64,000 nucleotides of DNA from a virus, in IMG/VR virus record IMGVR_UViG_3300028873_000014, positions 1 through 64,000 of that record; one strand, given 5' to 3'. Each line of letters starts with the position of its first letter. Position 1 is the first letter of the stretch. A model generated the notes under the pieces. That model ran no database searches, was not told the DNA's origin, and saw nothing but the letters and a program-made list of their open reading frames with translations. Of the stretch, positions 942-31,300 are shown piece after piece. Made by a program: the position numbers and the translations under genes.

Positions 942-1388
942 ATGAACAAGATACTAAGTATAGATCCTGCGACAAAATTAGGGTGGGCCGTAAGTAATAG
1001 TTTATATGGTATGGAAAACCTGAAAACACAAAGTGGTGAGAGTAGTGGGTTCAAGCTTATAAAGTTTAAGTCATTTCTACAGAAGATAATAGATACAGAA
1101 CAAATTAGTTGTGTGGCGTATGAACGTCCTGGGGGAAGATTCAAGAACGATATAATGAGTCATGCAAAGTTTGTAGCTATTATAGAAACAGTCTGTATAG
1201 AAAACGGTATAGAATATAAGGCGTTTTCTCCATTAGAGATAAAATCTTTTGCTACAGGTAAAGGAAATGCTAATAAAGAAATGATGATACAAGCAGCTAA
1301 GGATAAGTATGGGTATACAGGAAATGATGATAATATAGCAGACGCGTTACATATCCTAAATCTTGCTAACAAAAACTATAATGAATGA
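942..1388 (+). CDS. ruvC: RuvC-like Holliday junction resolvase
   Basis: ILSIDP..LGWA, YE, P..IKSFATGKGNANK and DNIADA motifs; likely ATG start at 942 (track start 912). Confidence 0.85.
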   Translation: MNKILSIDPATKLGWAVSNSLYGMENLKTQSGESSGFKLIKFKSFLQKIIDTEQISCVAYERPGGRFKNDIMSHAKFVAIIETVCIENGIEYKAFSPLEIKSFATGKGNANKEMMIQAAKDKYGYTGNDDNIADALHILNLANKNYNE

Positions 1389-10493: not shown

Positions 10494-10913
10494 ATGGTAA
10501 TAAATACAGATAATATGAGAGATAAAGTTAAGATAATAGAAAATGGAAAAGGTGCTGTACTAACGATATTAGATGATGATAAAGAGATTTATGGAGTGGT
10601 AGATGTGCAGCAACAGGAGCAGGTTACCGAAGTAACCCCGCAAGGGAAAAGGTTGCAGACATACTTGCGAAATGCGAAAATTACCGGGAATTTACGGGAT
10701 ATGGTGCATGTAGGCTATTTACCCAATGAACGATTATGTGGACATATAGTAGTTAGAGATAGTACAGAACCTATCTTTACAGATGACCCGGAACATGGTC
10801 TTCTTTGGAGAAATGGAGTAGTAGCCAGAACAGAAAAAGGAGAAGCCATTTACCGTACCAGTTACTACTCTGAAAATGGTGCAGATAAAGATGAGTTACT
10901 TATTAATCCCTAA
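10494..10913 (+). CDS. conserved crAss-like protein, possible ssDNA-binding protein
   Basis: YG.V.VQQ, GHIVVRDS.EP and G..IYR..Y pattern recalled from crAss-like phages; preceded by TAAATTTAC at 10466-10474. Confidence 0.55.
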   Translation: MVINTDNMRDKVKIIENGKGAVLTILDDDKEIYGVVDVQQQEQVTEVTPQGKRLQTYLRNAKITGNLRDMVHVGYLPNERLCGHIVVRDSTEPIFTDDPEHGLLWRNGVVARTEKGEAIYRTSYYSENGADKDELLINP

Positions 10914-13900
10914 TATACTACCTCCATAATCACTTTCTCTATCAAAGTCCTGCCACTTCTTAAATGCTTTTAAACCAGGTACTGCGTTTTCAGTAGCTCT
11001 TCCCGCCTTAGAACTTCCTGCAAATGGTCCATTCTTGTAATCACGATCATCGTCATCCTGGAATGGCCATTCTGCAGTAAGATATAGTGCTTGTGCAAAA
11101 CTCTTAAGTGTTGTAGACATAGCTATCGGATTCTGTATATACTCAGCAAGTGTTACAAAACCTAATCCTGGGGTATACATCTGGTTTTCAAAACGTATAC
11201 GGGAAGTGGTGTATGCAAAAAAGTTTAACCATCTCTTTTCTGTAGAACTTTCTTCTCCTAAATCTTTAGCCCATTCTCTAATAACTGCAGCAACTGCAAG
11301 TAATGTCATACCCATCATTAAGTCCATAGCACATAGATATAGGTTTTTCTTCTGATAGTCTTTCAGGTTATTCCATCCACCTTTCATAGAGTCAGTCCAA
11401 TGACCATCGAACTCTCTAACTAAATTGATATAACTAAGAACTGTTCTCCAGCTACCTTCAGTCTCCCCAAGCATTAAGTTATTATACCTGCTGCCTATTC
11501 GGTCTGTCATTGTAGTAGGGAAGTGTCTATGAAATTGCATGAGCATCTGACCAAATAAGTTTTCTACAACTTCCGGTTGATCAACTTTTTCAAAGTTACC
11601 CTGTGTAATAGTTTGTATACCTTTACCTTTAAGTATGATCTTGTTAATATCTACCTGGTTAATACCTTCTTTAAGAGTCACCTTTCCTGTAGTGGGGTCC
11701 CATACATGAGCACCGTCCCATGCATTTACATCTTCCCCTGTAATAGAGTTATGTACTTGCTCTGATCTAAGTAACCCTGAGAGTAACGGGAATTGAGCAA
11801 AGGTAATTGCTAACCCTTCCCCTGAATAAGCAATATCTAACCAGGAGTGCCCCTTTTTCCCCTGTAGCTGCATCCTTTCTTCATTACCTATACCATAGTG
11901 ATGCATTACTGCTTCCATAAATGAACCAGGTCTTTTATCGAGATAAGTATCTTTTTGGGATATAAACTTCTTACCAATCCCCGCCAGGTAGTCTGTTAAA
12001 AACTCTTTACCTGCAATTGCATAATATTTACCAGGGTAATAACGGGAAACAATAGTTACTCTTGCATTAAGAGTTTGATACAATGCCATATTATTTAAGT
12101 TGTTAAAGGGATTTCCCATAACGCCAAGAGATGTAATTTCTTGTAACTTTTTTATCAATGCGCCTAACTTACCCTGGTCTATCGATTGACCATAGAGAGC
12201 CGTTCTGACCATATGTTCCAGTCGCTTAACAGTATTGGTATCATTAGGGTTTAATCTTACAGGAGTCCCGGAAGTATCTGTAATTACTTTACCTGCGATA
12301 TTAGTCTTAAGATAGTGCCGCCCGGAATCGTCATTATCAGGATCACTAAGTATCTTACCTGCAGCAGCATCTTTAAGAGCAAGTATTTGTCCTTCTATAG
12401 CAGCCTTGTTCTTATATACCTTGGATATACCTACATAAGCAATTAACTGCTTAATAGGATCTCTTTCCATATCCTCTACAGAAGTTTTCCTGTTCTCTTC
12501 TGCAAGTTGCTGTACAAGAGCTTTCTTTTGTTCCAGGTACTTGAACTTAGGTAAAGGGGAACCATCAGTATCTTTAAGTTGTTTAGCCGTAAAGTTACTG
12601 TTCAGCTCGTTAATCTTAGCCTTAATATCAGCAACTTTCTGTTCATTCCTAAAGTTATTCAAGATAGGTTTAGATAACTCCATACGGGTAAGACCACTCT
12701 CATTAATCTTTTCTGTACTTCCCGGAACTCTGGTGAACGGTTCAATAACATTCTGTGTGAGAAAAGGAAGTAAACCACTTTCACTAGCACTTTTAAATAA
12801 TTTATTAGAATATGCTAATAAGTTACCTTCTTCTATATCCCTTTCTCCTTTTTCCCCCATATCATGAGAAGCAGCTACAAAATGTTTTACATACCCTGTA
12901 TATACAGCTAATTGTGCTTTCTCCAGATCAGTTACGGGGTTATGTAACTTTACATGTCGGGGATCTCTGAGATCAGTTTCACCAGCAAAGTCATTGATCT
13001 TAATATGTTCTTTGTTAGGGAAGTGACCATTTTTCTTAGTAATTGTACCAATAGGTTCTTTAGTCTTGGGGTCTTTATCCATAGACCAGTATTCTGTCCA
13101 TGTCTGGTATCTGTTCCTGAAAGTAATCACACTAGGACTTTCTTCAGTTAACCCTTCCCGTAATTCTTTTCTATAAAAGAGTACACTACCGTCATATCCT
13201 TCTACGGGAACCATGTGCATTACTTTATCTTCAGCAGCTTTGTATTCATCCGATAAATGATGATACAAACCATCTTTACCATCTTCATCTTCTGCCTGTC
13301 TGAATTTTCTAAGTGGTTCTTTTTTATAATAAAGCTCGTTATTAAACTCAAGATCTTGCGGAGAAGCACCGTCTTTAGTAATTACTTCCCGGTATTGAAT
13401 CGGTTTACCTGTAATGGGGTCTTTAACCGCATCTTCTAACTTATCTCTAACTGCACGATAATGATCTCCTATAGGTCTAAGTAATCTTTTACCATCTGCA
13501 CTATACATAAACTGCCAGTCTTTCTTAGGGTCAACTTTCCTACCAAGTGCTTTCTCAAAGTCATGTCCTAAAGGAGCAAGTTCATTAGTAATTGCCTGGT
13601 GTGCTTCAAGATCACCAAGCATTTCAGCATGTTTAATCACTATACCTATATGTTGTACTAGCTCATCACTAATTTGTGTAGGAGCATTGAACATTCTTGC
13701 GACATATGAAGTATCTGTTATATCCTGCCAAATGATCTTTTGTAGCTGTTCCTTATTTACAAATGGGTTTAGGTTCCCACCTTTTTCTTTTACAAACTCA
13801 CTGGCTTTAATATTAGCATCGATGTTAAGATTATTAATTTGTCTGCGAACATTATCAAATTTTAACTTATGGGCATCGTCTAGTATATCTCTAAGATGTT

Positions 13901-16900
13901 CAGGTAAAATAACAAGATCAGAATTAGCAATTAATATACACTCTTTTAAATAAGGGTAAAACTCATCCTTACTAAACCAGTTTTTGTTATTTATGAACCT
14001 AGAATATTGATCTACAGTATCCCGGATATGATTAAGTACAGCATTTAATGCTTCTGTTTTCTTACCAATACTTGTAAGATTTTCAATAGTCTTTGCTACA
14101 AAAGCTAATTGTTTGTATGTAGTGGGTTGTGCAGTAGATGGTAAAGTAGAAGTTCTTGTACTAAGCACTTCCCACATCTTTTTAAGAGCTTTATCTAGTA
14201 TTATGGTACTATCTGCAGCAGCTTCTCCTTCTGCCTTATAGTCAAATCCCCCTGTAGCCTCACTATCTGGTGGGGGTAAGATATTACCAGTAGCAAGTGG
14301 ATCTTGTGGTCCTAGTATCTTATCTACAAATACCTGGTTACTATCAAGAGAGTGCTTTACAAAATCTTCCTGGGTAAAACCGGATAAGTTACCTTCATGA
14401 ATATCCATTCGTAAGTGATAGGTCTCGGGGTCTTCCAGTTTCATATGCCCCATCTTTTCCAGTAACCTACTGTATGTAGCTACCTGAATACCTTGTTGCT
14501 GACGGGTAGTAAGTTTTCCTGATAACCGCGATCCTTCATTTGGTTCATGTCCTGCAGTGGTGTAGTTACTATCATATACACTGTTCTTAGATGTCTTAAG
14601 GTCATAAACTTTAAGTGTACCATCTTTGGTAATTTTTAGCAGATCAATTGACCCCGCTACCTTAGAAACAGGATCAGATACAATAACCTGGGTAAGAACT
14701 ACAGAACCATCTTCCTTAATATCATTATATATCTTTTGTAGGGTGTTGTAGGCATCTGCTTTAACCTTCTCGGGGATAGCAATAGTAGGTATGTCCTGGG
14801 CTTTTTTACCAAGGATAATGCCCTGTAGAATACCATCAAAATCATTACCCCAATCCCTATTTAAACGATATACATCATCTTCAAACCTTCCCTTAATAGC
14901 AGTAGTTACAGATAGATAGGTATTACCTTTAGTATCTTTGTACTCATGGTTCTCGGGGTTAAGCGTAACTCTGTTAATAGGGTTTAGATATAGATCATCA
15001 ATAGCTTTCTTCTGTATATCATTAGCCTGTTCCTTCATCTTCTCTACAAACTCTTTATCTTCCGGGGAAAGTTGAAAGTATATCTCCCCACGAGAGTTAG
15101 CTTCTTTCATAGCAGCAAGGTCAAGTTTTGATAAGTTACCTTCTGTAATATCTTTAGCTGCTTCGGAATAACTATCTAACCTCTCTTTACCCGCAAACAA
15201 GTTCTTTACCCATTCCCATAATCTTGCCCACCACTTTTTACCAGTAGCATTTGAAGTACGTCCAACAATAGTTTCACCAATTAACTTACCGATAGCTTCT
15301 TTCTTAATCTTCTCTTCATCTGGTGTGCCGTCACTATTCTGGTAATAGGGGTTATCTTTATACTCTTCAAAAGTTTTATCATAGATAGGTTTATCCTCAA
15401 TATTCTTCATCATATCCCGCAATAGTAATGAGTTCTCGGGTAACCACTGTACATAGATATGAGCAGCTTCTTCCGGGAGAGTAGTAGCATCTGCCTTACC
15501 TGTAACTACATCTACTGTTCTGTTAATAACATCTGAAACAGCAACTGCATTTACGACTTTACCATCTACTATTATCTGTGAGACATTTCTTATTCTTCCC
15601 CCAAGAGAGTTGATAAAGGCGGTAATTTTTCTAGTAATTTCTTTCTCTTCTGAGATTCTTCTTTCAGTCGTTTGACTTGTGATCGGGCTTCTTCTAAAGT
15701 AGTCGGTTGCTGTTTGGATAGTATCTCCCTTTGTTTTTCTGCTAGTTCCTGAAATGGAGTTTTTGAGTTCATTTTGTGTATTTTTATCTATTTGTAAATA
15801 ATTATTTCTTTCTAAGTCTTTATAAAAAGCATTACTTATATTAATTATAGGATCAATAAAATAAGGAACATTATCTTTAAAGAATACATTGCGAGGGTAA
15901 AGATCATCTATAGTAATTCTTAACTCTTTATTTTCATATTCTCCATCTTCTTTACTTTCAAAACCATAATCAGATAATACATTATCTATACTTTCCTGAT
16001 TAAATAAAGAATCAGTTTTTATAAAGTCTTGTTTTAAAACTGGAGTTATCGAAGAATCTGTCCTTTTAAAACCAAGAAGATCGTATCCCGTTTCTGGAAA
16101 AAAGTAATTATGAACAATTAATCCTTTTAGATACATGTCTATTTCAGCAGGATGGAAATCATGTTTTACTTTCGTAACAGATTTTCCATCATTAGATATG
16201 TAAATAGTATGTTCACCTCCTTCAGCTAATTCCATAGCGGGGTTCATATCTTCTTTTAATTCGTAATTTCCATCTTGGATTTGTTTCCAGAGCGTTTCCA
16301 AATCTTGTCCCGTTCCTTGGCTTTCATATCTTGCTCTTTCGCCTCCTTTAAAGTAACTGATGGCTGATTTAATAAATTCCTCTTTGCGTCCTGATGGTAT
16401 TGCTGGATCGAAGATGGCTTGTATGTCATGTTTTATAGTTTTATTAGTTTTTTGTTGAAAATAAATAGTAGACTTATCTCTAGCGGGGTTTGTTTTTAAT
16501 TGATACCACTCATTACCATGTTCATCCTTGATACGTTGTACATTGTTCTTACCGTAAGTCTTATCTAAGGTGTTCTTTACTCTGTTCTCATAGAAGTCAT
16601 AAATAGGTTTGAGTGCAGCAAATCCTTCAGTTTCCACTCTCTTGAGTTCTTCTTGAAGTTGTTGCTTTTCTATTTCTTTGAGTTCTATGTTATGTTTATA
16701 CGCTTTATCAAACTCTTCCTTTGTAGCTGCTCTCTGTGTACCTCTACTAGAACTGGTAAAATAATATGAAGAATTATTTATATTTTCATCTCTCCTATAA
16801 GTTCCTGTATTTGTTTTTATAAAACCTTTTTCTAGTTGTTTATTTAACGTAAATAAATCACTATCTAAACTTTTTATCCTATCCTCTTTCTGTTTCTTAA

Positions 16901-19322
16901 AGTCCTCCAATGTCTGATGACCTTCTACCTTACTAGCTGTATCACCAGTTGGGAACAACACATTCTCATAACCTTTCTTAGCACTATCTTGTACTATAGA
17001 CTTAATAAAGAAAGGAATCCAGTTATCATCCTTAGTAAGTAATTGTAAGAATGAGTTTTTCTGTAACTTATTGTTCTCATACTCATTTGCCCTTCTCATT
17101 AATTCTTCCTTACTAATTTCATCTCCCTCATTAGATTTTAGAAAGTACTCTAAACCTTCTTCAAATGGGGAATTTGCAAGTAATCCTTTACTTTTATCTG
17201 ATGTGAACTTTTCATAAGCCTTATCAAATTCCTGTTTACTTATAGGTTTATTAGTTTTAAAAGGTTCCCCAGAGATATGTTGACCTTCATATATCTCATA
17301 TGTAGGATTATTATTTGTATCTTTTCCTTTTATATATCTTGTTCCATCAACAATAAAGTTATTTTTAATCTTCTGGAACAAATCACTCTGTACTTCAAGT
17401 ATTCTACGTGTTTTTACTTGTTCCTGCAATAAATCAGACAGATATCCAGTAGTACTAATAACCTTATTAGAATCTACTGTGTTTATAGTATTATCTATAT
17501 CTGACTTCCAGTCCTCGAATCCGTATGTAGAACCTCTTTTATCAAATCTCTTTTTAAACTCTTCTTTAGGAATTGTAATTACTTTGTCAAAATCCTGCAT
17601 TCTCTCTTTAAGAATATTGGTATTAGATACAAATAGTAATTTATTCTCTTTTCTCGCTTGCTGTTTGAGCCTGTCAAATAGATTAAGCATGAACTCATTA
17701 TACTCTTTAGGTTTAGCACCTTTATATTCCTGCCTTGTTCTAGAACCTCTATGCGTATCAATAAAGTTATTCACTTCATTAGCATAATCATCGTCAAGTG
17801 TTATAAATCTACTATCTCCTTTCTCTTTTAGGAAACTTTTACCAATAGTAGGGTGACCCCATATAATTCTATCACTAGGTTCTAGTACATTATGAATAGC
17901 AGATTCTGAGTCTATCCATTCTGCATTATCCTTCTTCCATCCTTTAACTACAGGATATTTATCATCACTTCTAAACCAGCCAATTCCGTTTTCCGTAGAG
18001 AACTGGGCATGACCCTTAATAGATGGTACTATACCTGGAGTAGCTATCTCATTCTCAGTATAGTTAGTACCTCCTGGAACGGTTAAATTAGAATAATGTT
18101 GTGTAGGCTTTGGTTTATCTAATCCTGTTTCTTCATACGCTTTTTGATAAGCTACTTTAGGTATTTTATTACCGTCTTTGAAGTATTCTTGAGTAACGCC
18201 ATCTTCTGCATAATAAGATCTATACCTTGAACCATTTACTTCAAATCCCCCGGAACCAGTTGATGATGAATCTCTTACTTGTTCTTTAGCAATATTAATC
18301 TCTACTGTATAAGAATACTTAGCAGCTAAACTTGTTGCTAAGTCATTTAATGATTTTGGTTTATCATTATTATATATATCTTTTATTAACTCTTTCTGTT
18401 CTTTAGGGAATTGGGCATTTTGCAGAAACTGATCTATAGTAATGTTTCCCTTTTGTAGTTTATTCCATTCTTGTTGTGCTTTAGGGGTTTGGAATATCTC
18501 AACTGATTTTAAAGTTGCATTTACTTCATTAGGTGCAAGAAAAGAGTTTTGATATTCATAACTTTTCTCATAATCTTGTCTTTCCCTTATCTGATTTTCG
18601 TAATGACTATCGGGAATATCAAAGGGTTGTTTCTGTAGTATCAGATCACTGGTATGTAGTGCTCGGTTTAATGGAGAGGTGTATAGTTCTGATATAGGTA
18701 TGGTACTTAGTTCTTTTCCTGCTGATATAGCTTGTTTAATCCCTTTATCTGTAAGATCAGTTAATGGTCCTCGCAAGTTACCCTTAGTGTTATCATCTGT
18801 CTCCCCATGACGCACTACATAGATATGCCCATTATCACTTTTAAACTTTTCTACATCCCCTGTATGGGTTTGTGATTCTGTATATTCTTTAGCATTAACT
18901 CTATAACTATCTGGTCTTCCTTCTTTTTCCCAGAGGTTAAGAAGTTTAAGTATTGAAGAGTGCGTAACTATTACTGTATTATCTGGTGCTGAGTGAAGTA
19001 GCTTATCAAACTTTGTAAGTACTCTATCCTGAAAACCATTAAAAGATTCGGCATTGTTTACAGGTATATCGGGGTGGTTAAGAATATGATCATCTATCAT
19101 TTTCTCATAATCAGGCTCATACTTACCTGCTATATCCCCGAAATCCATAGTAACAAAACTATCATCTACATGTACTGTACCAGGGTAAAGTTGTTCCAGT
19201 GCTTTACCTGGTTCCGGGAAAGTTTCTCCTGCTAATTTCCACGCACTATACGCACCATCTTCACCGAATAGTTTTTCGAGCAGTTTATACCTGTCATCAT
19301 TTTTCTGGGGGCAGTTTGCCAT
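10896..19322 (-). CDS. giant polyvalent virion cargo protein (permuted His-phosphatase, P-loop, protein kinase, zincin-like, PD-(D/E)XK nuclease, C-terminal hydrophobic region)
   Basis: RHGET/SPLNRA; GHPTIGKS; EGGEH..HNYFFPET.Y..DLYPRN..FIDP; EEAAH; AGSIDLL..DLKT..Q..Y; immediately downstream of the vRNAP gene. Confidence 0.85.
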   Translation of the reverse strand: MANCPQKNDDRYKLLEKLFGEDGAYSAWKLAGETFPEPGKALEQLYPGTVHVDDSFVTMDFGDIAGKYEPDYEKMIDDHILNHPDIPVNNAESFNGFQDRVLTKFDKLLHSAPDNTVIVTHSSILKLLNLWEKEGRPDSYRVNAKEYTESQTHTGDVEKFKSDNGHIYVVRHGETDDNTKGNLRGPLTDLTDKGIKQAISAGKELSTIPISELYTSPLNRALHTSDLILQKQPFDIPDSHYENQIRERQDYEKSYEYQNSFLAPNEVNATLKSVEIFQTPKAQQEWNKLQKGNITIDQFLQNAQFPKEQKELIKDIYNNDKPKSLNDLATSLAAKYSYTVEINIAKEQVRDSSSTGSGGFEVNGSRYRSYYAEDGVTQEYFKDGNKIPKVAYQKAYEETGLDKPKPTQHYSNLTVPGGTNYTENEIATPGIVPSIKGHAQFSTENGIGWFRSDDKYPVVKGWKKDNAEWIDSESAIHNVLEPSDRIIWGHPTIGKSFLKEKGDSRFITLDDDYANEVNNFIDTHRGSRTRQEYKGAKPKEYNEFMLNLFDRLKQQARKENKLLFVSNTNILKERMQDFDKVITIPKEEFKKRFDKRGSTYGFEDWKSDIDNTINTVDSNKVISTTGYLSDLLQEQVKTRRILEVQSDLFQKIKNNFIVDGTRYIKGKDTNNNPTYEIYEGQHISGEPFKTNKPISKQEFDKAYEKFTSDKSKGLLANSPFEEGLEYFLKSNEGDEISKEELMRRANEYENNKLQKNSFLQLLTKDDNWIPFFIKSIVQDSAKKGYENVLFPTGDTASKVEGHQTLEDFKKQKEDRIKSLDSDLFTLNKQLEKGFIKTNTGTYRRDENINNSSYYFTSSSRGTQRAATKEEFDKAYKHNIELKEIEKQQLQEELKRVETEGFAALKPIYDFYENRVKNTLDKTYGKNNVQRIKDEHGNEWYQLKTNPARDKSTIYFQQKTNKTIKHDIQAIFDPAIPSGRKEEFIKSAISYFKGGERARYESQGTGQDLETLWKQIQDGNYELKEDMNPAMELAEGGEHTIYISNDGKSVTKVKHDFHPAEIDMYLKGLIVHNYFFPETGYDLLGFKRTDSSITPVLKQDFIKTDSLFNQESIDNVLSDYGFESKEDGEYENKELRITIDDLYPRNVFFKDNVPYFIDPIINISNAFYKDLERNNYLQIDKNTQNELKNSISGTSRKTKGDTIQTATDYFRRSPITSQTTERRISEEKEITRKITAFINSLGGRIRNVSQIIVDGKVVNAVAVSDVINRTVDVVTGKADATTLPEEAAHIYVQWLPENSLLLRDMMKNIEDKPIYDKTFEEYKDNPYYQNSDGTPDEEKIKKEAIGKLIGETIVGRTSNATGKKWWARLWEWVKNLFAGKERLDSYSEAAKDITEGNLSKLDLAAMKEANSRGEIYFQLSPEDKEFVEKMKEQANDIQKKAIDDLYLNPINRVTLNPENHEYKDTKGNTYLSVTTAIKGRFEDDVYRLNRDWGNDFDGILQGIILGKKAQDIPTIAIPEKVKADAYNTLQKIYNDIKEDGSVVLTQVIVSDPVSKVAGSIDLLKITKDGTLKVYDLKTSKNSVYDSNYTTAGHEPNEGSRLSGKLTTRQQQGIQVATYSRLLEKMGHMKLEDPETYHLRMDIHEGNLSGFTQEDFVKHSLDSNQVFVDKILGPQDPLATGNILPPPDSEATGGFDYKAEGEAAADSTIILDKALKKMWEVLSTRTSTLPSTAQPTTYKQLAFVAKTIENLTSIGKKTEALNAVLNHIRDTVDQYSRFINNKNWFSKDEFYPYLKECILIANSDLVILPEHLRDILDDAHKLKFDNVRRQINNLNIDANIKASEFVKEKGGNLNPFVNKEQLQKIIWQDITDTSYVARMFNAPTQISDELVQHIGIVIKHAEMLGDLEAHQAITNELAPLGHDFEKALGRKVDPKKDWQFMYSADGKRLLRPIGDHYRAVRDKLEDAVKDPITGKPIQYREVITKDGASPQDLEFNNELYYKKEPLRKFRQAEDEDGKDGLYHHLSDEYKAAEDKVMHMVPVEGYDGSVLFYRKELREGLTEESPSVITFRNRYQTWTEYWSMDKDPKTKEPIGTITKKNGHFPNKEHIKINDFAGETDLRDPRHVKLHNPVTDLEKAQLAVYTGYVKHFVAASHDMGEKGERDIEEGNLLAYSNKLFKSASESGLLPFLTQNVIEPFTRVPGSTEKINESGLTRMELSKPILNNFRNEQKVADIKAKINELNSNFTAKQLKDTDGSPLPKFKYLEQKKALVQQLAEENRKTSVEDMERDPIKQLIAYVGISKVYKNKAAIEGQILALKDAAAGKILSDPDNDDSGRHYLKTNIAGKVITDTSGTPVRLNPNDTNTVKRLEHMVRTALYGQSIDQGKLGALIKKLQEITSLGVMGNPFNNLNNMALYQTLNARVTIVSRYYPGKYYAIAGKEFLTDYLAGIGKKFISQKDTYLDKRPGSFMEAVMHHYGIGNEERMQLQGKKGHSWLDIAYSGEGLAITFAQFPLLSGLLRSEQVHNSITGEDVNAWDGAHVWDPTTGKVTLKEGINQVDINKIILKGKGIQTITQGNFEKVDQPEVVENLFGQMLMQFHRHFPTTMTDRIGSRYNNLMLGETEGSWRTVLSYINLVREFDGHWTDSMKGGWNNLKDYQKKNLYLCAMDLMMGMTLLAVAAVIREWAKDLGEESSTEKRWLNFFAYTTSRIRFENQMYTPGLGFVTLAEYIQNPIAMSTTLKSFAQALYLTAEWPFQDDDDRDYKNGPFAGSSKAGRATENAVPGLKAFKKWQDFDRESDYGGSILGINK
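15590..15772 (-). CDS. nested +1-frame ORF (60 aa), putative overprinted peptide B
   Basis: ATG with A-rich leader; helical sequence sharing L..Q...TL.EA..Q with 16256..16429. Confidence 0.5.
   Translation of the reverse strand: MNSKTPFQELAEKQREILSKQQPTTLEEARSQVKRLKEESQKRKKLLEKLPPLSTLLGEE
16256..16429 (-). CDS. nested +1-frame ORF (57 aa), putative overprinted peptide A
   Basis: Translated manually: MTYKPSSIQQYHQDAKRNLLNQPSVTLKEAKEQDMKAKERDKIWKRSGNKSKMEITN; A-rich leader. Confidence 0.5.
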   Translation of the reverse strand: MTYKPSSIQQYHQDAKRNLLNQPSVTLKEAKEQDMKAKERDKIWKRSGNKSKMEITN

Positions 19323-19324
19323 AA

Positions 19325-22300
19325 CTATATACAGTCTTTTATACCTTGTAAAATCTCGTAATCAGATACTTTTCCTTGTAACCTGCGATATACACCTCTT
19401 GCTTTTTCAAGAAACTGCTCTTTATCTACCCCCTTACCCTTCTGTTCATAAACTTTATCTATTTCACTTTTCCAATCTATAGGGGCAATATCTTCACTAT
19501 ATTCATCCATGTAGTTTTCTTGTGCTAATTGACCTAACCCCGAGAGAGCAGAAGATACAACACTTCCTTTATCATCATATCTGGTCACATTACCATGTTT
19601 ATCTGTAGCTGTAAAGATACTATTATCTGTGGTAGCTTGTTCGTGTTCCGGAACTTTTGTAGTAATAGTCTCTGCAATTTCTTTCTGTCCCGGGGCATTA
19701 TCTGCGTATGGGGGGTTAGTAATTTTCTTTGTCCCCGGTAGCGCAACTGCATCTGGTAATGGTCCTAGTATTCCAGCAGCTTTCCACTGTCCTCTACTAC
19801 CTTTAGGGGTAATCTTCTCATAAACAGCGGTTACTCCTTTTGGTATGGTTTCCCCTTTAGCAATTAGTGACAGAGGTTCTCCTTTACCTTCTTCTTTACC
19901 TACACTCCGAAGTTGATAAGTACTACCATTCACCTTAACCGAGTAAGGAAACTCTATCTCTGTTTTCTTACCAGCAGTAGTTGTGTTAAAACCTGATGCC
20001 TCTATAGAACCAATATTCTTGGTCATTAGTGCCTTTTCTGTAGCATCGTACTTACCTGTTTTCTTAAACCCTTCTATGGCTATACCTTGAGTGTTAATAG
20101 CTTTTTCCTTAGTGCGAATAGCATTAAAGATATCTACTGACATAGTGCCCCCCGATAGCTGAACAGGTGAGGTAATTGCTTTTTTAACACGGTCTATATC
20201 AACTTTCTCCCCTCTATCATTAGTAGCTTCGGGTACATATCCAGAAACTTTAGGTATTATAGTCTTTAGGAAAAAGGTATTTCCGGTATGAGTAGCATAA
20301 CTAACCATAATATCATTCATCACTTTTTCAAGACTATCGCCAAAAACATCTTCTCCTTTCTTTTCGTCATAGTGAGTAGCAGAAAGTAATTTATTAACTT
20401 CAGTAACCCTATCGGAGAAATCTTTAAAAGCAAATGTCGGTAAGAACTTAATGAATGAACCACTTTTGAACTGACCCCCATCTTTAACTAAGAGATAGTT
20501 AAATAATGCAGTTGCATCATTACGTGTCTTGGGGGAGTTGTAAAGAATAGTAAAACTATCTACTAACCTCTGTTGTTGTTGTTCTGATAACTTTGCCCAG
20601 GTATTACTTTCAGCCTTGTTGATCTTATCTCTATTAGTCTTTTCCCCGGCAGCAACTAATCTTAGGAACTTGGAGATAAGGTAATTCCTGTTCTTTCCGG
20701 TAAGTGTGTCTCGTAATCTGTTAACAATATCTACGATACCTTCTTTACCAGGAGTATCATAAATCATACTATGGTCCAGGGTAGATAATGTACCTATTTG
20801 TCCAGTCTTCTGTAGCCAATTGATATATGCCTTAACTGCTAATGCCGATATTACATCACCCTTTAACGTCTTATTAAACTCTTCCTGCTGGTTCCTTCTT
20901 ACATCAAAGTTATTACCAACTATACTCATTATCTTTTTAAAACCATCTGTCTTTTCCAGGAAGATAGCTTTAGATAATTCGTTGATCTGTGTAACCATCT
21001 TAACATAGTTTCCATAAACAGGACTATGATCTTCTTTTGGAGAAGTAGTATCATCTGCTAATATCTGCCGGATATCTATAGGTATATCCATTTTAGCAAA
21101 TGCCTTATCACTAATCTGTTCACCATTAACTATACCTAAACTACGAAGAGGGTCTATGATATCACTTTCTGCATCTTCCCATGAAGGGGGTAACCCCTGG
21201 TTAAGTTTAATAACCTTGGAAATATTAGCCATTGTATCGGCATTCTTTTTAACCGAAAGAAGATCACGTACAGCAGCAAGTTCTAAAGTAGCATCTTTGC
21301 CATTATCTATAATGTTCTGTACTAACATATCCTTAGTCAAGGTAGGTAGTTCAGCACTTTCCTTACCTGGGTTTTGAGTAACTGCCTCTTTTAGTAACTT
21401 TTCGTACGCTTTTTCTAAAAGACCTGTCTTAGACATTCTTTGTTCAGCAGGAGTTTTGAGTACCCCCGAAAGGTTAGAAAGTTCTTTAAAGTACTTACGG
21501 ATAGCTGGTTGGAACATATATAAAGCCGCAATATCCTCGTTCATGCCCAAAGAAACCATAGTAGATACATACCCCACAGCCTCGATATTCCATCCAAGTT
21601 TTGCAGCTAACCGTAATTTAGCATTATCGGTCATGGTGTTAACTATAGCACTAAGAATTGAGAACTTTCTTTTACCATTTTCTGTAAAGTGGTTACTAAA
21701 ATCGTTGTACATTTTACCATCAAAAGTTATTCCTTCCGATGTCTTTTTCTCATACTGATTAAGTAGTGAATATACCAACATAGAATTTACAGCAGCACCG
21801 ATATTACGCTGTCCTTCCATATTATCTACAAAGGCTTTCTTTTTACCAGTAAGCGTATTTATCTCTGTATCGGGGTCTTTAAGCATATCCAGTACTATAT
21901 CCGCACCTTTTTCCCCGGTATGGGGATTGAGCAGGTCCTTAATCGTACTGGTAATATCTTCTACTATCTTAGTATCAGTAGGTTGGTTGATAATAGCATC
22001 TTTACCACCACCGGATATATCCTTATTGTTTAATAAAGCAATACGGGCAGCAAGGGTAATATTGTTAAGTACTCCATTATTCAATCGGTCTCCCCCCGAT
22101 GCAACAAACTGTTCTATGGTACTTGGCATCTTTAGTTCCTGCAAACAAGTCTTGTATAACAAGTCATTATTAGATAACTTGAACATATCTGCAATATCTT
22201 CATCAGATACAGGGCCATCATTAAGGTCCATAGTTATCTCATCTGTATCAGGGTTATACAGACCTCGTAATTCGCGTAACTTTCTTTTAAAGTTCTTGTT

Positions 22301-25300
22301 GTTATCTATCTGCCATTTTATATACTCATCGAACTTATCCTTATCTGTAGTAGCAGTTCCATAAGCTACCCGTGTACCATCTTTTCTGTATGTATCAGCA
22401 ATAGTATTGTAACCTTTATCTATATCAAAGTCAGCACCAGATATTTCTGTAAGTTCTGCAGGGTGAATACCTATAGAACCATAATACGCAGGTAAGATAT
22501 CTACCGTTGTAGTAGTAAGGTTAGAGTGTTTATCGTCCAGGGGAATACGTGTGATAAAACTATCTTTAAGTGCTGGTATAACAGTACCATTTGCCTCTTC
22601 TTTAAAATGTGCAGGACGTATCTGTTCTGAGAAAAATCCTAAAGAGTTACCTTGTTCATCAAATCGTTCAAAGTTATGACGAAGATCATCCAGGAAATAA
22701 ACAACTTCTTTAGTAGGATCAGGTAAACCTGCAAATGTTCTGGCTTCTTTATTATCCCACTTGTGATAGTTACTATACTTTTGGGGGTTATCTTTATACT
22801 CTCTATCAGTAATAACTGTCCATCTTTTTGGCTGACCAAGATCATTAAGTTCGTGTACCTGTTTAATCCTCTTAACACCATAGTCACTTGTCAAAGTAAG
22901 AGGTATACCTGGTACTTTTTCAGACATTACCCCTTTAGAGAAATAAGATAAGTACATCTGGGTAAACTTTTCTCTGGTTGCTGGTAAGTTAGGATCATAT
23001 ATATTCTCTCCATCTCTTGTTTCTGTAAAGCCTAAAGTTTGTACATCAGACCCTGTAGCACGTAAAGTATCCCGCATTCCATCAAAGAAGTTACCAAGAG
23101 TAGCTTTAACATGTTCTGCAGAGATATCTGAGTTAAGTTTTATCCCTCCGCTATGATCAAATAACTCATTAGCAGCAGATACATAATTATTCATTAACCT
23201 ATCTGCTACTCCTGATAGATACATCTCTCTCATCCTACCTACAGTAAATGGTTTACCATCTGTATCATGTGCTACTCCCATGAAAGATATAGGAGTATCA
23301 TCGTTCTGTTCAGCAAGTAACTGACCCCTTAACTGAGTAGGGTCAGTTATTACCAGCTTGTTAGAAGGATTCTCTGACTGTAAGCGCATGTACTGTGCCT
23401 GTTTCTGATTAAAGTACTTGCTATCTATGTCCTTGACCCCAGGGGCCATAGGTTCCTTCATAGCCTTACTTGCTGTTGGGGGGTGCGCAAAAGTTATAGT
23501 AGGTGTACCTGCAGTATCCATATCTTCTTCAAACTTTTCTAAAGACTCCCGAAGATGGTGCAGTTCTTCCATATATGGAAGAGGTTCCCACTTACCATTG
23601 ATCTTAATAGAAGTGTAATCCTTAAATAATGGAAAGGAAGAGCACTTGAGATAAGTCTGCCCATCAAAGTACACATTTTTCAATGAGTTAAACGCATCTA
23701 CTTTCCTGTTTAGTCCGCCAGCATCTATGAAAGCCTTTTCTGCTACAGGGGAACCTTTCTTAATCAGATCAAGAATATCCGCCTGTGCTTTAGTTAACTT
23801 ACAGAAACCAAATAGCATGTATCGAAGAGCTTTCTCTGTCATATACATCTGAGCATCTGCCTTATCCCCCTGTGTACCATCGAACTTAGTAAACTTTGGT
23901 TCAGGTATCATTACATGATGAAAAGTAGTAAGAGGATGAGTAATACCTAGTTCCGGGGCAATTACAGAAAACTCCACAGATCTACCTGTAGCATTAGCTC
24001 CTTTTAATCTTTTCGTCCAGTCAACAGCACCTTTAAATGACTTTGCTTCATCACCATAAAGTAACTGCACCATACCTGCGGTATTCAGGTAATCATTCAT
24101 AAATACCTGGGAGATATTATGCAGAAAGTTATCTTTTTCAAGATTCATCTTCTCGTTACGTTCCTTACTGGAAAAACCTGTAAAGAGAAAACCCGGAAGT
24201 AACTTGTTCTCTATTTTATCACCTTTCTTTTCTATCAATCCTTCATCTGCAAGTTGTTGTATAAACTCATCTCTCTGTTTTCCCCAATAGGTACGAAGTT
24301 GTCTTTCTATCTCATACCTTTTCAGGGGAGCAGGTTCTTCTCCTTGTGCGCCTTTTTCTATATCATCTGCAAGATCACCTAACATCTTAGCAGTCCGGTA
24401 AAGTTTTAAACCTCTCTTCTCTCCTGTATGATACCCCAGGAGGATCTTAGTATCTGGTTCTCTACCCTCTTCCTGTGCCTTTTCTATCTCGGCAATCTCT
24501 TTAGTAACACGGGCTATTCTATCTACTTCATTAGTTACCTGGTTGTATAAGATATCTATAGCATCTTTAGATAACTTTGGTTTACCAGTAGTCTTATCTG
24601 AAAAAACTGCATGTACTACAGGTGCCCGGAACATATGGGCAGTACTATTAGTCTCCATCACCCCTATGATGTGAGGAGTAGCATAAAAATGACCACCGTC
24701 AGTTGTTTGTATTCTTGCCCCTTCTTCTATGCCATAATTAGATAAAGCAGTTGTATATAGCTCTCTACCATTGTAGTCACCAAAAGAAGAACCTTTTTCT
24801 CTGTTAACCTCTAAGTTCTTGGTAGCAAATAACTCTTTCTCTCCTTCAGGTGTTTCCACATCCCCTGTACTATGTAATACCTGGCGTAAACCATCTATGG
24901 TCTCTACCCGTAACTTACCCTGGTCAGACATAGCAATAAACTGATCGGAAGAGAGCAGATGACTACTTTGTGTATCGGGGTTATTACTAAGTTCTATAAT
25001 CTTTTCAGGGTTATTTAATGAGAGTAATGCTGTCATATGATAGTTACCTTCCTGGTAACCGAACCTTTTTTCACCATCTGCTCCGATGTAAGACATGGTA
25101 TTTACAGTTTCATCAAAGTTACTATTACCTGCAAAAGTTCTCATTAACCTTGCAGCAGCACCTTGTGATTTTTCTTCTTCTCCTTCATTACTGGCAAAGA
25201 TGTTTTCCCCCTTGAGCATAGAACTTTCTATACCATATAGTTCATCATAACTTAAAGGAGGTACTCCACGATTAGCATTAACTGATTTCTGCTGTTTCTT

Positions 25301-28300
25301 TGTTCTTACCCCGGCATCTTTTCCTAGTGATATAGAATAAGTGATATAGTCAGGATGATAAGAAATACCAAGATTAGCTTTCATCCTATTACTAGTATCT
25401 ATGGATAACTTTTCAAGATCATCATCTGATATAGCTACAGAAGTTTTGTCCTTATTCGATATCTGATTTTGCAAATCGTGTATTGGGGAAAGTTGTTTAA
25501 TGATAAACTCTTTCTTTGCCTTTCTGTTATCTGCAAACTTTTCCAGGGCACTTAGATATATAGCAGCGTGTGATTGAGCAGATTGTTCAAACTGGGTTTT
25601 AGCACTATCTCTACGATTAGCACCAAATACACGTACAGTACCCTTAGTAGGATCAATTTCTGTAAATAGAGGATTTGTGGTAAACTGTTTAAACCCTTTA
25701 ACTACCTGGTTAAACAACAATCCATTTTTGGTAATAGACCAAACCTTAGTAGTGGCATTTCGTTCAAACCCTGTTTCAATAAATACTCTATCTATGAATG
25801 CAGCACTGTCCGGGTTATTACTATCCCTGATCTGTTCCATTTTGGTAATAACATCTTCTTCGGTAATACTATTAGCTATCCCCTTAAGCAGACCATTGTA
25901 TACACGTACAGCACTTACCCCCTGGACCAATGGAGTACCGTCCAGGAATTGCTTATTACCAAATTCATCTGTATAGGGGATAGTTGTTGAACCTATATAC
26001 TCCCGTAAAGACTTGGAAAGTGAGTCATATCCTCCAACACTATCTGCAGCTTTATCAAAACCTTTAAACTCTTTACCATGTTCTGCTTCCAGTTCTTCCT
26101 GATAATCTTCTTCCAACTTCTGTTTATACCCCATGATCTGCAGGTGAGTATCAACAGATTCTTTAATGGACTGTCTGATAGCAGGATTAGAAAAAATCTG
26201 GTGTTTATCCCGCAACTTAGTTAACCATTCTACTCTTGCAGCAGGGTTAGAAATACCATTTGCTCTTTCTATATACTTATCCCGCCGGGGGTTTAATAGA
26301 TCACGGTACTTATCTAAGATATTATCCAGTACTTTATTCTTATCATGTGGACCTTTACCGTTAACTTCTTGATGATATAATGCTGCTACAGTAGAAGATA
26401 ACTGATCTCCTTCCATCTGGTTCATGTTCCGGGGAATGTCAAAGGTCTTTCCGTTACCATCAGTTATCTGCTGTTTACCAAGTTCTATAACCTTCATAGC
26501 AGGGTCAGTTATAGAAAACTCACTATCCCTGGTAAAGTCATTATCCTGCAAACCTCTCTTTTTGTATGCCCCTCTATCTATATCAGTAAATATAGATTCG
26601 AGTTTTGACCCTGTAAGCTGGGAAAAGACATTCTTTATCCAATCCCATATACGAGCGAAGAATCCTTTAATTACGGGATCGGTCTTGACATTTTTATCAG
26701 TTTTCCACTGGTCAAACCTATCACCTAAATACTCTTCATAAAATAACTTAGTAAGGGCATCGTGAGAAAGGTTTTGGTAACTTGGGTGAAGTGCTTTAAA
26801 AGTTTCTAGTCGTGAAGAAGTGGCAAGTCTTTCTTTTTTAGCAAGAGATAATAAGTGGTCACGTTCTTCCTGTGTAGAAAGTAACCGGAAAATGGCATGA
26901 ATTGCTTCATGGTACTTACTTGGAGCATTTTCATAGGTCTTAATAGTACCAGTAACTTTACCAAGAGTATTCAGATGCGTAACAAACTCCCCCACTACAG
27001 TATTAGTAGCTACAAGATTCTCTTTAAGTATACCTAAGTTCTGAACAGTTACCAGACCTTCAGGGAAAATATCTCTGCAATACTGTATGAAATTATCTAT
27101 GTTCTCTATAGCATGTTCATCAAAAGGTTGCCCTTTACTGACTACTTTCATGGCACCTGCCTGTTTATCTAATAGGTCAAGTATTGCCATAGGATCTCCC
27201 CCTGAAGCAGCAGCTATCTCTTCAGGAGACATAGAAGTGAAAGTGAACCCGGGTATATCACTTTTGCCCATAGCAGCACCTTCTGTAATATTTACAGCAG
27301 GAACTACTTCTATAGGAATAGTACTATCTACAGGTTGATAACTTAGATAATAACCTTTGGTAATATTTGTAGATACAGTACTTTGCATACCCATTATCTC
27401 ATCTTTGGTAGGAGCAGTACCAATACTCCGTGACAAGTTCTCTGGTTTAATAGATACTCTCTGAAACTTACCATCTTTCCACACACCAGGGAATTTTGTA
27501 GCACCAAGTTTTGATAGTTTATAGTTAACCTCTTTTTCTATCCTGGCTACCATTTCTTCCCCATTACCAAACTGCATAGGAGTATTCTCATTACCCTTTC
27601 CTGAGTTTATAGAAATATTTGCCCGGTCTGTGGTATTAGTATCATAAACATTTACAGAAAGATCGCCCTTATCGCTGAGTTTAATTTTTATCTGAAGATT
27701 AGTACTGGCTGGTTGTTTAACGAATAAGGAAGAAAGTAAGTCACTTGCCTGTTTAGCAAGTTTTGGGTCTTTACCTTCAGTAGTACTTTTTATCTGTGAG
27801 GCAATTCCTTTATCACCAAAGATAGTATTGGTTAGTGTATCTATAGTCTCTTTAGTAACAGAACCTGCCTCTAAACCTATTTTATGTACATCACCATTAA
27901 CCATCTTTACAGAAGCAGTGTATCTACTCTGTGAAGCAGTGTTACCTGTAGTAACTATACCAGCAGAATTTCCATATACATCTTTACCAGTTTCATTATC
28001 TACTACAGCAAGTATTTTCTTACCAGTAGCTTCTATAGCCTGTACAGTAGGACGTAGGGCTTTCTTATCATCATTAAGATAATCATAACCATTAAACAGA
28101 GTAGAGATGGTCATAACTTTCTCTAGTTCTGCCCCCGAGAGTGAAATGGTATCTCCTTTCTTAGGTACTAAGTTATTTAAAGCCTGTTGTAAGGTCTGTG
28201 ACTTTTTATACTCATCCTGAAAAGTACGTAAAGCAGTTTCAGCAGTCTCGTTTGCTTTAACATGATATACCTTCTCAAACTGTTGTGGGGTAAGATCAGG

Positions 28301-31300
28301 AATAGGTATCTGTTTACTGTCTATTACAAAATTATATCTATTAGGATTAGTAACAAAACCAAGTGTCTCCCCCCCATACCTGACATCCATAGTAAACTCT
28401 TCTGTAGGATTGTATTGTATAGCAGGGTTATCTCCTAGTTGGTTATGTGTTCCGGGGGTTTTTCTGGTAATAGTTACAGATAAGTTTTCAGCAAACCCTT
28501 CTTTGGGTATATTCCGGAGTTTATTATCAAAATTGTTCTGAGCAACTTTTATAACATAATCTCTAATAGATTGTTGCGCTGCAGTATCTGTAGTAAATTC
28601 TTTATCTTTAATAAGTTCCGGAGGGTTTTTTCTAAGATCGAGTACCTGAAACTTAGTATTGTCGGCATTAGCTTGTACCTTAAACTTTTTACCTAACTCT
28701 TTATCAGTAATAGGATATATTCTTACCTGGTCGTGTAACTTACTAATCTTAGTATTTGGTTCAGTAGTAGTAGTTTCAGTAGGAGTAATATCTTTTTTAT
28801 CTAAGGAATATCCATCAATACTCTTTACCTCTTTAGCAGAATTACCAGATACCAGTTTTAAATAACCATTCTTTAGATCAGTTACTGTCCATCCTTTACC
28901 TGTGTTATCATAGATAACCTGGCCTTTTCTAACTTCACCAAGTAACTTAGGGTGTTCAATATCTACTATATCACCAAGTGCTCTATTTGCACTAGCGGGG
29001 TTTTTATAAATATCAGTACCGACTTTACCATCTTTCTCTATTCGATAATCACCCTTTTTAACTTCTACTACATGGGGATTACTTTTAAGATTAGGAAAAG
29101 AGGCAAGTTTCTGTGTATGATCAAAGTGATCATTTATAGTATTCTTAATAACTGATATAGCCTTTTCTGGTTCATTAGCATATACGGCATGTATAGCATT
29201 TAACTTTTCATGCAGGTCTTTACCATTAGAATCTTCTGATAAGTATTTATTAGTACTATCTGAATAACCTGTACTACCATGATCCATAGCATCTGCAGAA
29301 AAATCCCCGGCATCTACAGTAGGCATCTCAAGAGTAGATAACATATCTCTACGTATCTCTTCTTCATTAAACTTTTCTATAGGCTTTGGTTCAGAAGTAA
29401 CAGGAGTTTCCCCGGTAGGAGTAACTACAGGTTTATCTTCTGTAACAGGAGTAGTTTCAGTAGGTTTGTTACTTAATAACTTATCAGCAGCAGCTTGTGC
29501 AGCTTTATTGGCTTTAACTGCTTCTTCTGTTTTAGCCTCCAGTACAGAGTTATGAAAAGCATCCAGGAACTTCTGTCTGCCAGCAGGGTCCATAATCCTG
29601 TTAAGTGTATCTAACAAGTTATCATGTTCTACCCCGAGACGGTAGTAATCAAGGTATGAGTCAGCTATTTTATCCAGTGCCTCTATATCTAATTCACTAT
29701 CATATCCTGTTTTACCTTCCTGTAAAAGATGGTTATTGAATAACTTGGTAAGTAGGTTACGAATAGGACCGTGATATTCCCCGTGTAGAGCATTCATAGC
29801 AATTGCCCTTTCTTCAGGATCGTCTATTCCAAGTGCAGCATTGTACTTACCATTATATCCATTTACAGCTTCCTTATACTTATTCAGTAAATCGATCTGT
29901 TCTTTAGTAGTCTTTAGTGATTTAGCTTCTTTAAGTGTTCCGGGGGCACTTTCTGAACTTTTAAGGGTAGCAAGTAGAGATAACTGTTCCTGCATACGAG
30001 GGACAGATGCAAAAGTAGATACATCATAGAAAGGAATATCTTTAACTTTTCCCCGTAAGCCAGTAGTAACATTATCTCCATTAATGATCTTGTTCTGCCT
30101 GGTAAGTTTATCTATAGTAGATGCTTTAAAGAAAGAGGCAAATCCTATAGCTTCCGTATGTTCTGCATTTAGTTGTTCTGCAGCAGCTCTTTCTTTACTA
30201 CCTTTTGGGAATTTGTTAGGGTCAGTGGGTAGAGGAAATGCTTTTTGCATATCTCGATATGTCTTAGTCATACCATGAGCCTGTTCCATGAAGTCAGTAA
30301 TTTTCTGCTGCATTTCTGCATGACTCTCTTCTGAGAACTGTGGTTTGTTTTCAACATTTGCATATATGGCATCATGTAACTCCTGGGGGGAAAGTGAAGT
30401 AACCTGATCCTGCAACTTAGCGAGATATGGATCAATCATCTTATTCCTTGCAGCAGATATCAGGAACTTAATACCTGCATCTGATCTGCTATCTTCTTCA
30501 CTCTTTCTATCTTTAAGTGCAACCGAAGCAGCAATTTTATCATTCCATACTCCTTGCAGGATAACATCAGACATATAGTTTCCAAGAGGGTTCTTCCACT
30601 GATCATTAACAGCTTTTACATATTCTTCTGCAGCAGTTTGTTTAGTACTCCTATTCGTGTTAAATTCTTCTATCTGTTCAGGGGTAGCGTCTTTAGGCAA
30701 TTTCTTCTCTGCAACTCTATCACCAACGGCTTTAATACCATGACCTCCGGCTTCCATAAGTGGAGAGATAATAGCACCTGTCATAAACCCCGAGATGAAA
30801 GTTTTTGCACCTTCTGGGGTAAACTGTTTATCTATAGCGTTACCAAGTGCTGTCTGCCAATCAGTATTTTCATGACCGTATTGGGCCTGGTAGTAACTTT
30901 TAATAGCATCATCTACAGTAGCCATAGAAGACATAGTTAACCCAAAACCTGTTCCATGTGCAGCAGCTTCATAGTAATTAGCAGGGTCTTTAAACCCTTT
31001 AACCGATCTAAGTGCCCTTGCTCTAAAACTATCCCATCCATCCTGTTTAACAGCAAGTCTTTCCCCTGTAGCAGCAAATTCTTTATCTGAAGTAACTCTT
31101 GCAAATTTTGAAAACTCATCAGGAGCTTGTGATAGTAAGGATTCTTCCAGGGCGGAAGAACCTTTAAGTAAATTACCAAAGGCGAGTTTGTTAGTGTATA
31201 GAGCCACAAAGGTGTTAAAAGCACCATCTTTTTTAGCAGCTTCCATAGCATTATCCTGTATGTTCTTCAAGTCAAGTCCTACAGGATCTTGCCCATTTGC

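Follow-up and report, generated by a model that had tools for sequence, protein, structure and literature searches.

The epsilon/zeta (i.e. PezAT) and Phd/Doc systems are toxin-antitoxin pairs in which the active site of a kinase is blocked by a small protein. Overlap of two coding sequences is exemplified by Rz and Rz1 of phage lambda, with Rz1 lying wholly inside Rz in the +1 frame. The Kinase-PolyVal domain (PF18762) is reportedly contained in the polyvalent proteins of phages and conjugative elements, as described by Iyer et al. in 2017. In another kinase system, HipBST, the small protein HipS neutralises the HipT kinase by blocking its active site (PMC10627512, PMC6581861). This study concerns two short open reading frames (ORFs), termed ORF1 and ORF2, that lie in the +1 frame of the gene for a giant 2808-aa protein with a Kinase-PolyVal domain. 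The gene is located in a 64,000-nt stretch of viral DNA (positions 1 to 64,000 of IMG/VR record IMGVR_UViG_3300028873_000014), the whole of which is hereafter called the window. An earlier note on the window had described two ATG-started +1 ORFs that bracket the kinase and had proposed that their products neutralise it; the ORFs are present at the positions and with the lengths described, and the kinase match lies between them (Table 1). Comparison with homologues demonstrates that a family of such overlapping peptides exists, that both reading frames are under selection and that the two ORFs of the window belong to this family.

RESULTS

A +1 ORF overlaps the start of the kinase module

Stand-alone kinase genes were collected from 160 loci in Bacteroidota genomes and metagenomes (L015-L174), from which 157 genes were extracted. 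The sample was extended with three large phage proteins (L003, L005 and L006) and a distant phage subfamily (L007-L014). All 157 stand-alone genes contained a +1 ORF over the start of the kinase module. Among the 131 unique intact genes, this ORF started with ATG, spanned 41-50 codons (mostly 49), ended at a conserved position and began 4-40 nt (mostly 7-19 nt) downstream of the kinase ATG. The consensus of the encoded peptide was MNYKISFQE.A.LGME.LSKQ.P.TLEEAR.Q...LK..SSSK.KKQR. The host codon that provides the 'AT' of the +1 ATG was always NAT (i.e. CAT, AAT, TAT or GAT) and never NAC, the encoded residue varying between His, Asn, Tyr and Asp; downstream, NAC accounted for 28-39% of such codons.

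ATG-started +1 ORFs of 42-50 codons were found in the same register in L003, L005 and L006, with the core LSKQ.P..L.EAK.Q. The distant stand-alone phage subfamily (~278 aa; host-frame motif DRIPSGAEQGY) exhibited a +1 ORF that is longer (~64 codons) and has SKLPP.SLTEAMNQ as its core. One member of this subfamily with 56% GC (L014) had a +1 frame that was open but uninformative, the probability of openness being 0.84.

Free peptides of 43-86 aa that match the +1 family formed 115 clusters in the databases. RefSeq entries of 48-49 aa belonging to the family (i.e. WP_175556804.1, WP_165768437.1 (Flavobacterium johnsoniae) and WP_153301305.1 (Elizabethkingia)) were 84-89% identical to the peptide of the stand-alone locus L039 and were annotated as 'hypothetical protein', without name, family or function; as retrieved, these entries show no genomic context and the overlap with a kinase is not readable from them. 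Gene callers already list the peptide in many genomes, where it is unnamed, and annotation pipelines miss or mislabel the gene. Judged from these sequences, the family is about 49 aa long in stand-alone genes and 42-67 aa in phage copies, and is unnamed and undescribed.

The +1 peptides gave no significant hit in Pfam or NCBIfam and none in PADLOC. A hit of ORF1 to LPD23 (PF18838) had an E-value of 0.051 and 13.8 bits against a cut-off of 27, and was ascribed to chance because only one of 56 family members (i.e. P0001, the ORF1 peptide) produced it; ORF1 was not assigned to that family. Two matches in a scan with the ORF2 peptide (P0002), L180 and L181, encode an unrelated protein of 178 aa in which a helical stretch is similar, and were judged to be coincidental. 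Two homologue alignments, A1 and A5, were conserved too loosely for pattern scans. Literature searches on Kinase-PolyVal, on polyvalent proteins with overlapping genes and on embedded antitoxins returned nothing relevant; the domain was named in a Legionella kinome survey only and no description of a second reading frame in Kinase-PolyVal was found.

Both reading frames of the overlap carry signatures of selection

Given the kinase protein and its codon usage, the probability of an open +1 frame averaged 0.10 (median 8%) for the stand-alone genes, and 0.5% of control 50-codon windows downstream were open in this frame. For 12 representatives with less than 60% identity in the kinase body, the joint probability of +1 openness was 1e-12. 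The kinase frame was likewise open against expectation, with a probability of 0.014 given the +1 protein as compared to about 93% actually open. It follows that selection acts on both frames.

Codon usage within the overlap was consistent with this result. Synonymous entropy was near zero for alignment columns 12-58 and rose to the expected level immediately beyond the +1 stop (column 62); examples of low entropy are an invariant Gly (0.06 bits vs 1.74 expected) and a Leu (0.07 vs 2.34 expected). Codon identity at identical amino acids was 0.80 in the overlap, as compared to 0.44 in the kinase body. Base entropies for the first, second and third host codon positions were 1.08, 0.69 and 0.71, respectively, in the overlap and 0.80, 0.56 and 1.41 downstream, such that the most variable base is position 1 of the host codon (i.e. 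the +1 wobble position) in the overlap and position 3 downstream. Amino-acid entropy in the overlap was lower for the +1 frame (1.27) than for the host frame (1.75). RNAalifold predicted no consensus structure for the overlap (0 pairs), as for a control region. The earlier note had proposed a search of homologues for an open +1 frame, its TL.EA..Q motif and suppressed synonymous variation: the frame is open, the ATG and the motif are kept, and synonymous variation is suppressed exactly over the overlap. Dual coding of the start of the kinase module is strongly supported by these sequence comparisons.

Membership of the window ORFs in the +1 family

A profile was built from the 131 stand-alone +1 peptides, with the host-frame translation of the same DNA as a rival profile. 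In a six-frame scan of the window, the +1-peptide profile matched only ORF2 and ORF1. Scores with this profile were 52.4 bits (E 6e-15) for ORF2 and 17.0 bits (E 7e-4) for ORF1 vs 30.5 and -0.6 bits, respectively, with the host-frame profile. The +1 and host frames of the phage proteins scored 67 and 38 bits for L006, 30 and 21 bits for L005, and 26 and 21 bits for L003; for L007-L013, the +1 frame scored about 22 bits and the host frame was undetectable. Smith-Waterman z-scores of ORF1 against the +1 peptides of L005, L003 and L006 were 8.6, 4.0 and 3.5, respectively, and those of the host frame for the same pairs were 7.0, 2.2 and -0.1. The probability of an open +1 frame given the host protein was 0.014 for ORF2, 0.24 for ORF1, 0.005 for L006, 0.003 for L005 and 0.042 for L003. 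Both window ORFs start with ATG in the +1 frame over the N-terminal motif of the kinase module, with ORF1 in the canonical place and ORF2 over a second copy of the motif. These comparisons demonstrate membership of the window ORFs in the conserved +1 family, the evidence being strong for ORF2 and moderate for ORF1.

The ORF2 peptide was 50-55% identical to that of L006 and to some stand-alone peptides, 35-55% identical to the stand-alone peptides as a whole and 27% identical to ORF1. At the position aligned with ORF2, neither motif nor cassette was found in L001, L002, L003 or L005, and the +1 frame contained 4-7 stops. The 100-kb IMG/VR record from which the window derives yielded one Kinase-PolyVal match only and no second kinase of this type. 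As the ORF2 subtype differs and the record lacks a second kinase, ORF2 constitutes a second cassette, of another subtype and without its kinase. The suggestion that the second copy is a relic of a lost kinase module accords with these data insofar as ORF2 belongs to another subtype, is not followed by a kinase and shares a 100-kb record with a single kinase.

Within the window alone, both +1 ORFs are of a length expected by chance and their mutual similarity is modest; their significance comes from the comparison with homologues and not from window statistics. In 2000 synonymous shuffles of the 2808-aa gene, the longest +1 ATG-started ORF averaged 64.5 aa, and the probabilities of a longest ORF of at least 60 aa and a second of at least 57 aa were 0.57 and 0.23, respectively. 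The two peptides aligned with a Smith-Waterman score of 43 (P about 0.01 vs shuffles), a score attained by 0.9% of 465 pairs of other +1 stretches (top pair 50), and a BLASTP comparison of the ORF1 peptide with the ORF2 peptide gave no match. The motifs quoted in the earlier note and the A-rich leaders (Table 1) are present in the sequence, the mean A content of the 2808-aa gene being 37%. The host-frame linkers beneath the ORFs, which had been called similar, did not exhibit significant similarity (P 0.09-0.19). Moreover, ORF1 does not overprint a linker but the conserved N-terminal helices of the kinase module, i.e. the region where the stand-alone kinases start.

Predicted complex of the peptide with its kinase

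An AlphaFold2 model of the ORF2 peptide was a helix-loop-helix with a predicted local distance difference test score (pLDDT) of 85. The model of a stand-alone kinase had a pLDDT of 92, with values of 95-96 for the kinase-frame N-terminal helices. A complex was modelled for the L039 stand-alone kinase and its own overlapping peptide. The interaction prediction score from aligned errors (ipSAE) was 0.89 in three runs vs 0.01 for the best of three controls; the runs shared at least 93% of contacts and partner pLDDT was at least 85. Of 80 solved complexes, 58 attained this ipSAE mark, as did 2 of 110 mismatched pairs; these counts hold only roughly for this model because our own alignments were used. 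A Foldseek search of the PDB retrieved only distant kinases (e.g. CK2 alpha and Lpg2603; best E 2e-3); with no close solved structure, it is unlikely that the model merely reproduced a known one.

The modelled interface was very large, with 105-107 contacts that involve almost every peptide residue. Contacted kinase residues include V72, V80, L82, V88, F139 and L186, together with E178, D179, H181, D182 and E183. From general kinase architecture, we take the former six to line the adenine pocket and the residues of the E178-E183 stretch to belong to the catalytic loop. On the peptide side, contacts of the second helix comprise L26, A29, R30, Q32 and A33, of which L26 and Q32 are nearly invariant or invariant in the family. 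The contacts can be inferred to map onto the ATP site, and the peptide is predicted to lie across the catalytic cleft of its kinase. Binding of the peptide to the kinase, as put forward in the earlier note, thus finds support from this complex at the level of a structural model.

Decay of stand-alone kinases, gene context and start signals

A single premature TAA or TAG was present in 21 of the 157 stand-alone kinases (13%), with 10 of these stops in the overlap, 11 in the body and the frame otherwise intact. All such cases were from metagenome-assembled genomes or metagenome contigs. Broken peptide ORFs numbered 0 of 157 vs about 4.9 expected at equal rates. These single stops point to recurrent, recent inactivation of the kinase. 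Breakage of the kinase with retention of an intact peptide would be expected if the two were toxin and antidote, and would fit an antidote role for the peptide.

The stand-alone kinase gene sits alone amid unrelated housekeeping genes, a setting that would likewise fit an antidote, and a PADLOC search with kinase and peptide gave no match to a defence system. In one giant phage protein, a Shine-Dalgarno-like GGAGG was located 6 nt before the internal +1 ATG (L005, positions 1540-1560), within codons of the giant protein (IEEVK).

Host gene of the window ORFs

The features of the window are listed in Table 1. The 2808-aa protein contains a His_Phos_1 match at aa 167-247 and an exonuclease-like region at aa 1431-1640, and genes in the same block match PHROG families of the type 'virion structural protein'. 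Its kinase scores above the Kinase-PolyVal gathering threshold, with 115.7 bits in a second profile search, and retains the catalytic columns. In the alignment with homologues, the invariant columns E108, K122, D211 and N216 and the nearly invariant D228 are kept (numbering of the window fragment, in which residue 1 is host aa 930); by general kinase knowledge, these are presumably the glycine-loop Glu, the beta3 Lys, the catalytic Asp and Asn and the metal-binding Asp, respectively.

Table 1. Coordinates of the two +1 ORFs, their leaders and the surrounding host-frame features in the window
Feature	Position (nt)	Host residues (aa)	Strand	Basis or remark
Giant polyvalent host gene, 2808 aa, multi-domain	10896..19322		-	ORF and Pfam matches
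ORF1 (P0001), 57 aa, +1 frame, ATG start	16256..16429	965-1023	-	Positional orthologue of the conserved overlapping peptide
ORF1 leader, A-rich, A at -3	16430..16449		-	20 nt, 65% A; top 1.5% of the gene's 196 ATGs
N-terminal part of kinase module, host frame, read in both frames	16278..16439	~962-1015	-	Aligns with N-termini of stand-alone kinases
Kinase-PolyVal catalytic domain	15834..16277	1016-1163	-	Pfam PF18762, 110 bits vs cut-off 27
ORF2 (P0002), 60 aa, +1 frame, ATG start	15590..15772	1184-1245	-	Second cassette after the kinase, well-conserved copy
ORF2 leader, A-rich, A at -3	15773..15792		-	20 nt, 70% A; top 0.5% of the gene's 196 ATGs
Copy 2 of N-terminal motif, host frame, NELKNSISG...IQTATDYFRRS	15660..15773	1184-1221	-	Host-frame profile, 30.5 bits

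Alignment showed that the stand-alone kinases (~210 aa) open with the motif K.ELQNLISG...IQT...YLRR. This motif occurs twice in the host frame of the window, as a degenerate copy before the kinase and a good copy after it, and the N-terminal host-frame motif also precedes the kinases of L003 and L005. The domain that follows ORF2 (window positions 15423-15660, ITAFINSLGG ... LPEEAAHIYVQW) has counterparts of 50-64% identity in L001 and L002, neither of which gave a kinase match next to this domain; L003 carries it upstream and not downstream of the kinase. As judged from these alignments, module order is shuffled among the relatives of the giant protein.

Three copies of the motif Y[FL]Q are present in the 2808-aa protein (0.61 expected, P 0.025), at positions 16455-16463, 15792-15800 and 15072-15080 (host aa 954, 1175 and 1415, respectively). 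Directly downstream of these sites lie, respectively, the kinase module, the ORF2 cassette and the exonuclease-like module. In relatives, PFYQ(L/I) or GWYQL is found ahead of the shared downstream domain. The sites could be processing sites or a polyprotein junction motif. Both ORFs had been noted to start just after a Y(F/L)Q linker, and the motif is indeed present there, but it is a separate feature of module junctions. A 4349-aa ORF at 19325-32374 on the minus strand stops 2 nt before the start of the 2808-aa gene, the pair forming 21.5 kb of back-to-back giant genes in a structural block. A search of a phage collection with the window region returned neither a DNA nor a protein match, and related-locus searches with the giant-protein relatives P0006 and P0008 returned no loci.

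DISCUSSION

Our favoured explanation, which we hold with modest confidence, is that both ORFs belong to a conserved +1 family of helix-loop-helix peptides placed over the Kinase-PolyVal start and that the peptide is a built-in inhibitor of the kinase. Translation of the peptide would start independently, at an internal AUG preceded by an A-rich leader, and, following the modelled complex, the peptide would act as an ATP-competitive antidote. As the peptide gene is written into the kinase module, the two would stay together whenever domain shuffling moves the module between giant proteins of phages and stand-alone genes of bacteria. For the phage, the kinase would be silenced by the peptide within the producing cell, and the giant protein would pass to the next cell unaccompanied by the peptide. 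ORF1 is the cognate copy, and ORF2 a second and better-kept cassette of another subtype without a kinase of its own.

Several points weigh against an inhibitory peptide of this kind. Translation of the +1 peptides is indicated by sequence signals only, i.e. the A-rich leaders and the GGAGG of L005. The support for binding is model confidence for the L039 pair and not for the window kinase with ORF1 or ORF2. ORF1 itself is weakly conserved (17 bits; probability of openness 0.24), the DNA comparison of phage giant proteins draws on four examples, and the common ancestry of the sequences means that the per-sequence probabilities of openness are not fully independent. Occupancy of the cleft would also be compatible with a peptide that acts as substrate, activator or obligate subunit, and the stand-alone gene could be an ordinary regulator.

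A role other than that of antidote is the alternative to which we attach most weight, although we consider it rather unlikely. The peptide would in this case be real and kinase-binding, and would serve as an obligate subunit or activator, as a substrate or primer, or as a translation regulator in the manner of mok for hok. The very large modelled interface would suit a permanent subunit as well as an inhibitor, the neighbourhood of housekeeping genes and the absence of a match to defence families agree with such a role, and the short distance between the two start codons could set a fixed product ratio. However, helix 2 is modelled among the residues of the adenine pocket and on the catalytic loop, where it would exclude ATP; kinases are often broken and the peptide never; and ORF2 has been retained in a phage without a kinase of its own. 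A more elaborate proposal treats the Kinase-PolyVal module as an effector and antidote unit, inseparable in domain shuffling because the antidote sits in the second frame of the effector's coding sequence. In this scheme, ORF2 would represent an orphan antidote, of the subtype found in stand-alone bacterial genes, that is kept to switch off a stand-alone kinase of the host, i.e. counter-defence by antidote mimicry; we regard this proposal as doubtful.

The +1 ORF could instead encode an alternative N-terminus, with translation starting at the +1 AUG and a -1 shift near the end of the ORF producing a peptide-kinase fusion, an explanation that we consider improbable. The tight packing of the modelled peptide on the kinase and the A-rich nature of the region would be compatible with a fusion, as would the 10 stand-alone genes with a kinase-frame stop in the overlap and an intact kinase body. 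A database protein from one Logan contig (P0273, 112 aa) does join the first ~39 peptide residues in frame to the kinase, and could represent an indel, an assembly error in an A-rich stretch or a trace of frame slippage. However, a search of the database for longer proteins with the peptide in frame found this one fusion and two read-through artefacts, i.e. one fused form vs 115 clusters of free peptides. No conserved slippery heptamer was present among 131 genes and no consensus RNA structure was predicted, and the overlap was not classed as a frameshift site. The +1 stop overlaps TTA, CTA, ATA or CTG and not a shift site, and no start codon overlaps this stop. Moreover, the kinase frame stays open throughout the overlap although the odds of this are 0.014, model confidence is high for its N-terminal helices and, in the giant proteins, the frame is continuous with the upstream domains. 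The least probable explanation, which we consider highly unlikely, is that the ORFs are open by chance and resemble each other only because a host-frame motif is repeated or because the nucleotide sequence itself contains an element, e.g. an RNA structure. This was the first reading of the locus, encouraged by window ORFs of chance length and by the two copies of the N-terminal motif in the host frame, and was dropped after the codon-level tests on homologues: conservation is higher in the +1 frame than in the host frame, openness and start codon are kept far beyond expectation, and variation follows the codon periodicity of the +1 frame with no more predicted RNA pairs than in the control.

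The overlapping family is a well-supported addition to the short list of overlapping genes in bacteria and phages. It would represent a protein domain with its partner gene embedded in a second frame, conserved in hundreds of Bacteroidota genomes and in giant proteins of phages. If the peptide is an inhibitor, its location would explain how a packaged, host-directed kinase can be made without poisoning the producing cell and how kinase modules move between proteins and genomes without leaving the antidote behind. The proposal is directly testable, as Flavobacterium johnsoniae has the stand-alone form and is genetically tractable.

The host protein of the window resembles the polyvalent proteins, of which it is a member, in having Kinase-PolyVal among several enzyme domains and in being encoded in a virion gene block; the second reading frame within the Kinase-PolyVal domain goes beyond these proteins as described, no prior description of it having been found. 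The arrangement of the two genes is like that of lambda Rz/Rz1 in that a small gene lies within a larger one, on the same strand and in the +1 frame, and that the products are expected to interact. In contrast to Rz/Rz1, the function is another one, there is no homology and the overlap belongs to a mobile domain module that occurs both in bacterial stand-alone genes and in giant phage proteins. As in HipBST-type pairs, a small protein is placed directly on a kinase at the nucleotide or catalytic site, here according to a model, and the two products form a self-contained cassette that is found in varied neighbourhoods and in which the kinase is often broken and the partner never. Unlike HipBST, epsilon/zeta and Phd/Doc, the peptide matches HipS, epsilon or Phd neither in sequence nor by family, and the kinase is of the Kinase-PolyVal type rather than of the HipA, zeta or Fic fold. 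Whereas type II toxin-antitoxin systems consist of two adjacent genes of an operon, the partner in this system lies in the +1 frame within the first 50 codons of the kinase itself, from where, as the modelled complex suggests, it is a candidate for neutralising that same kinase.

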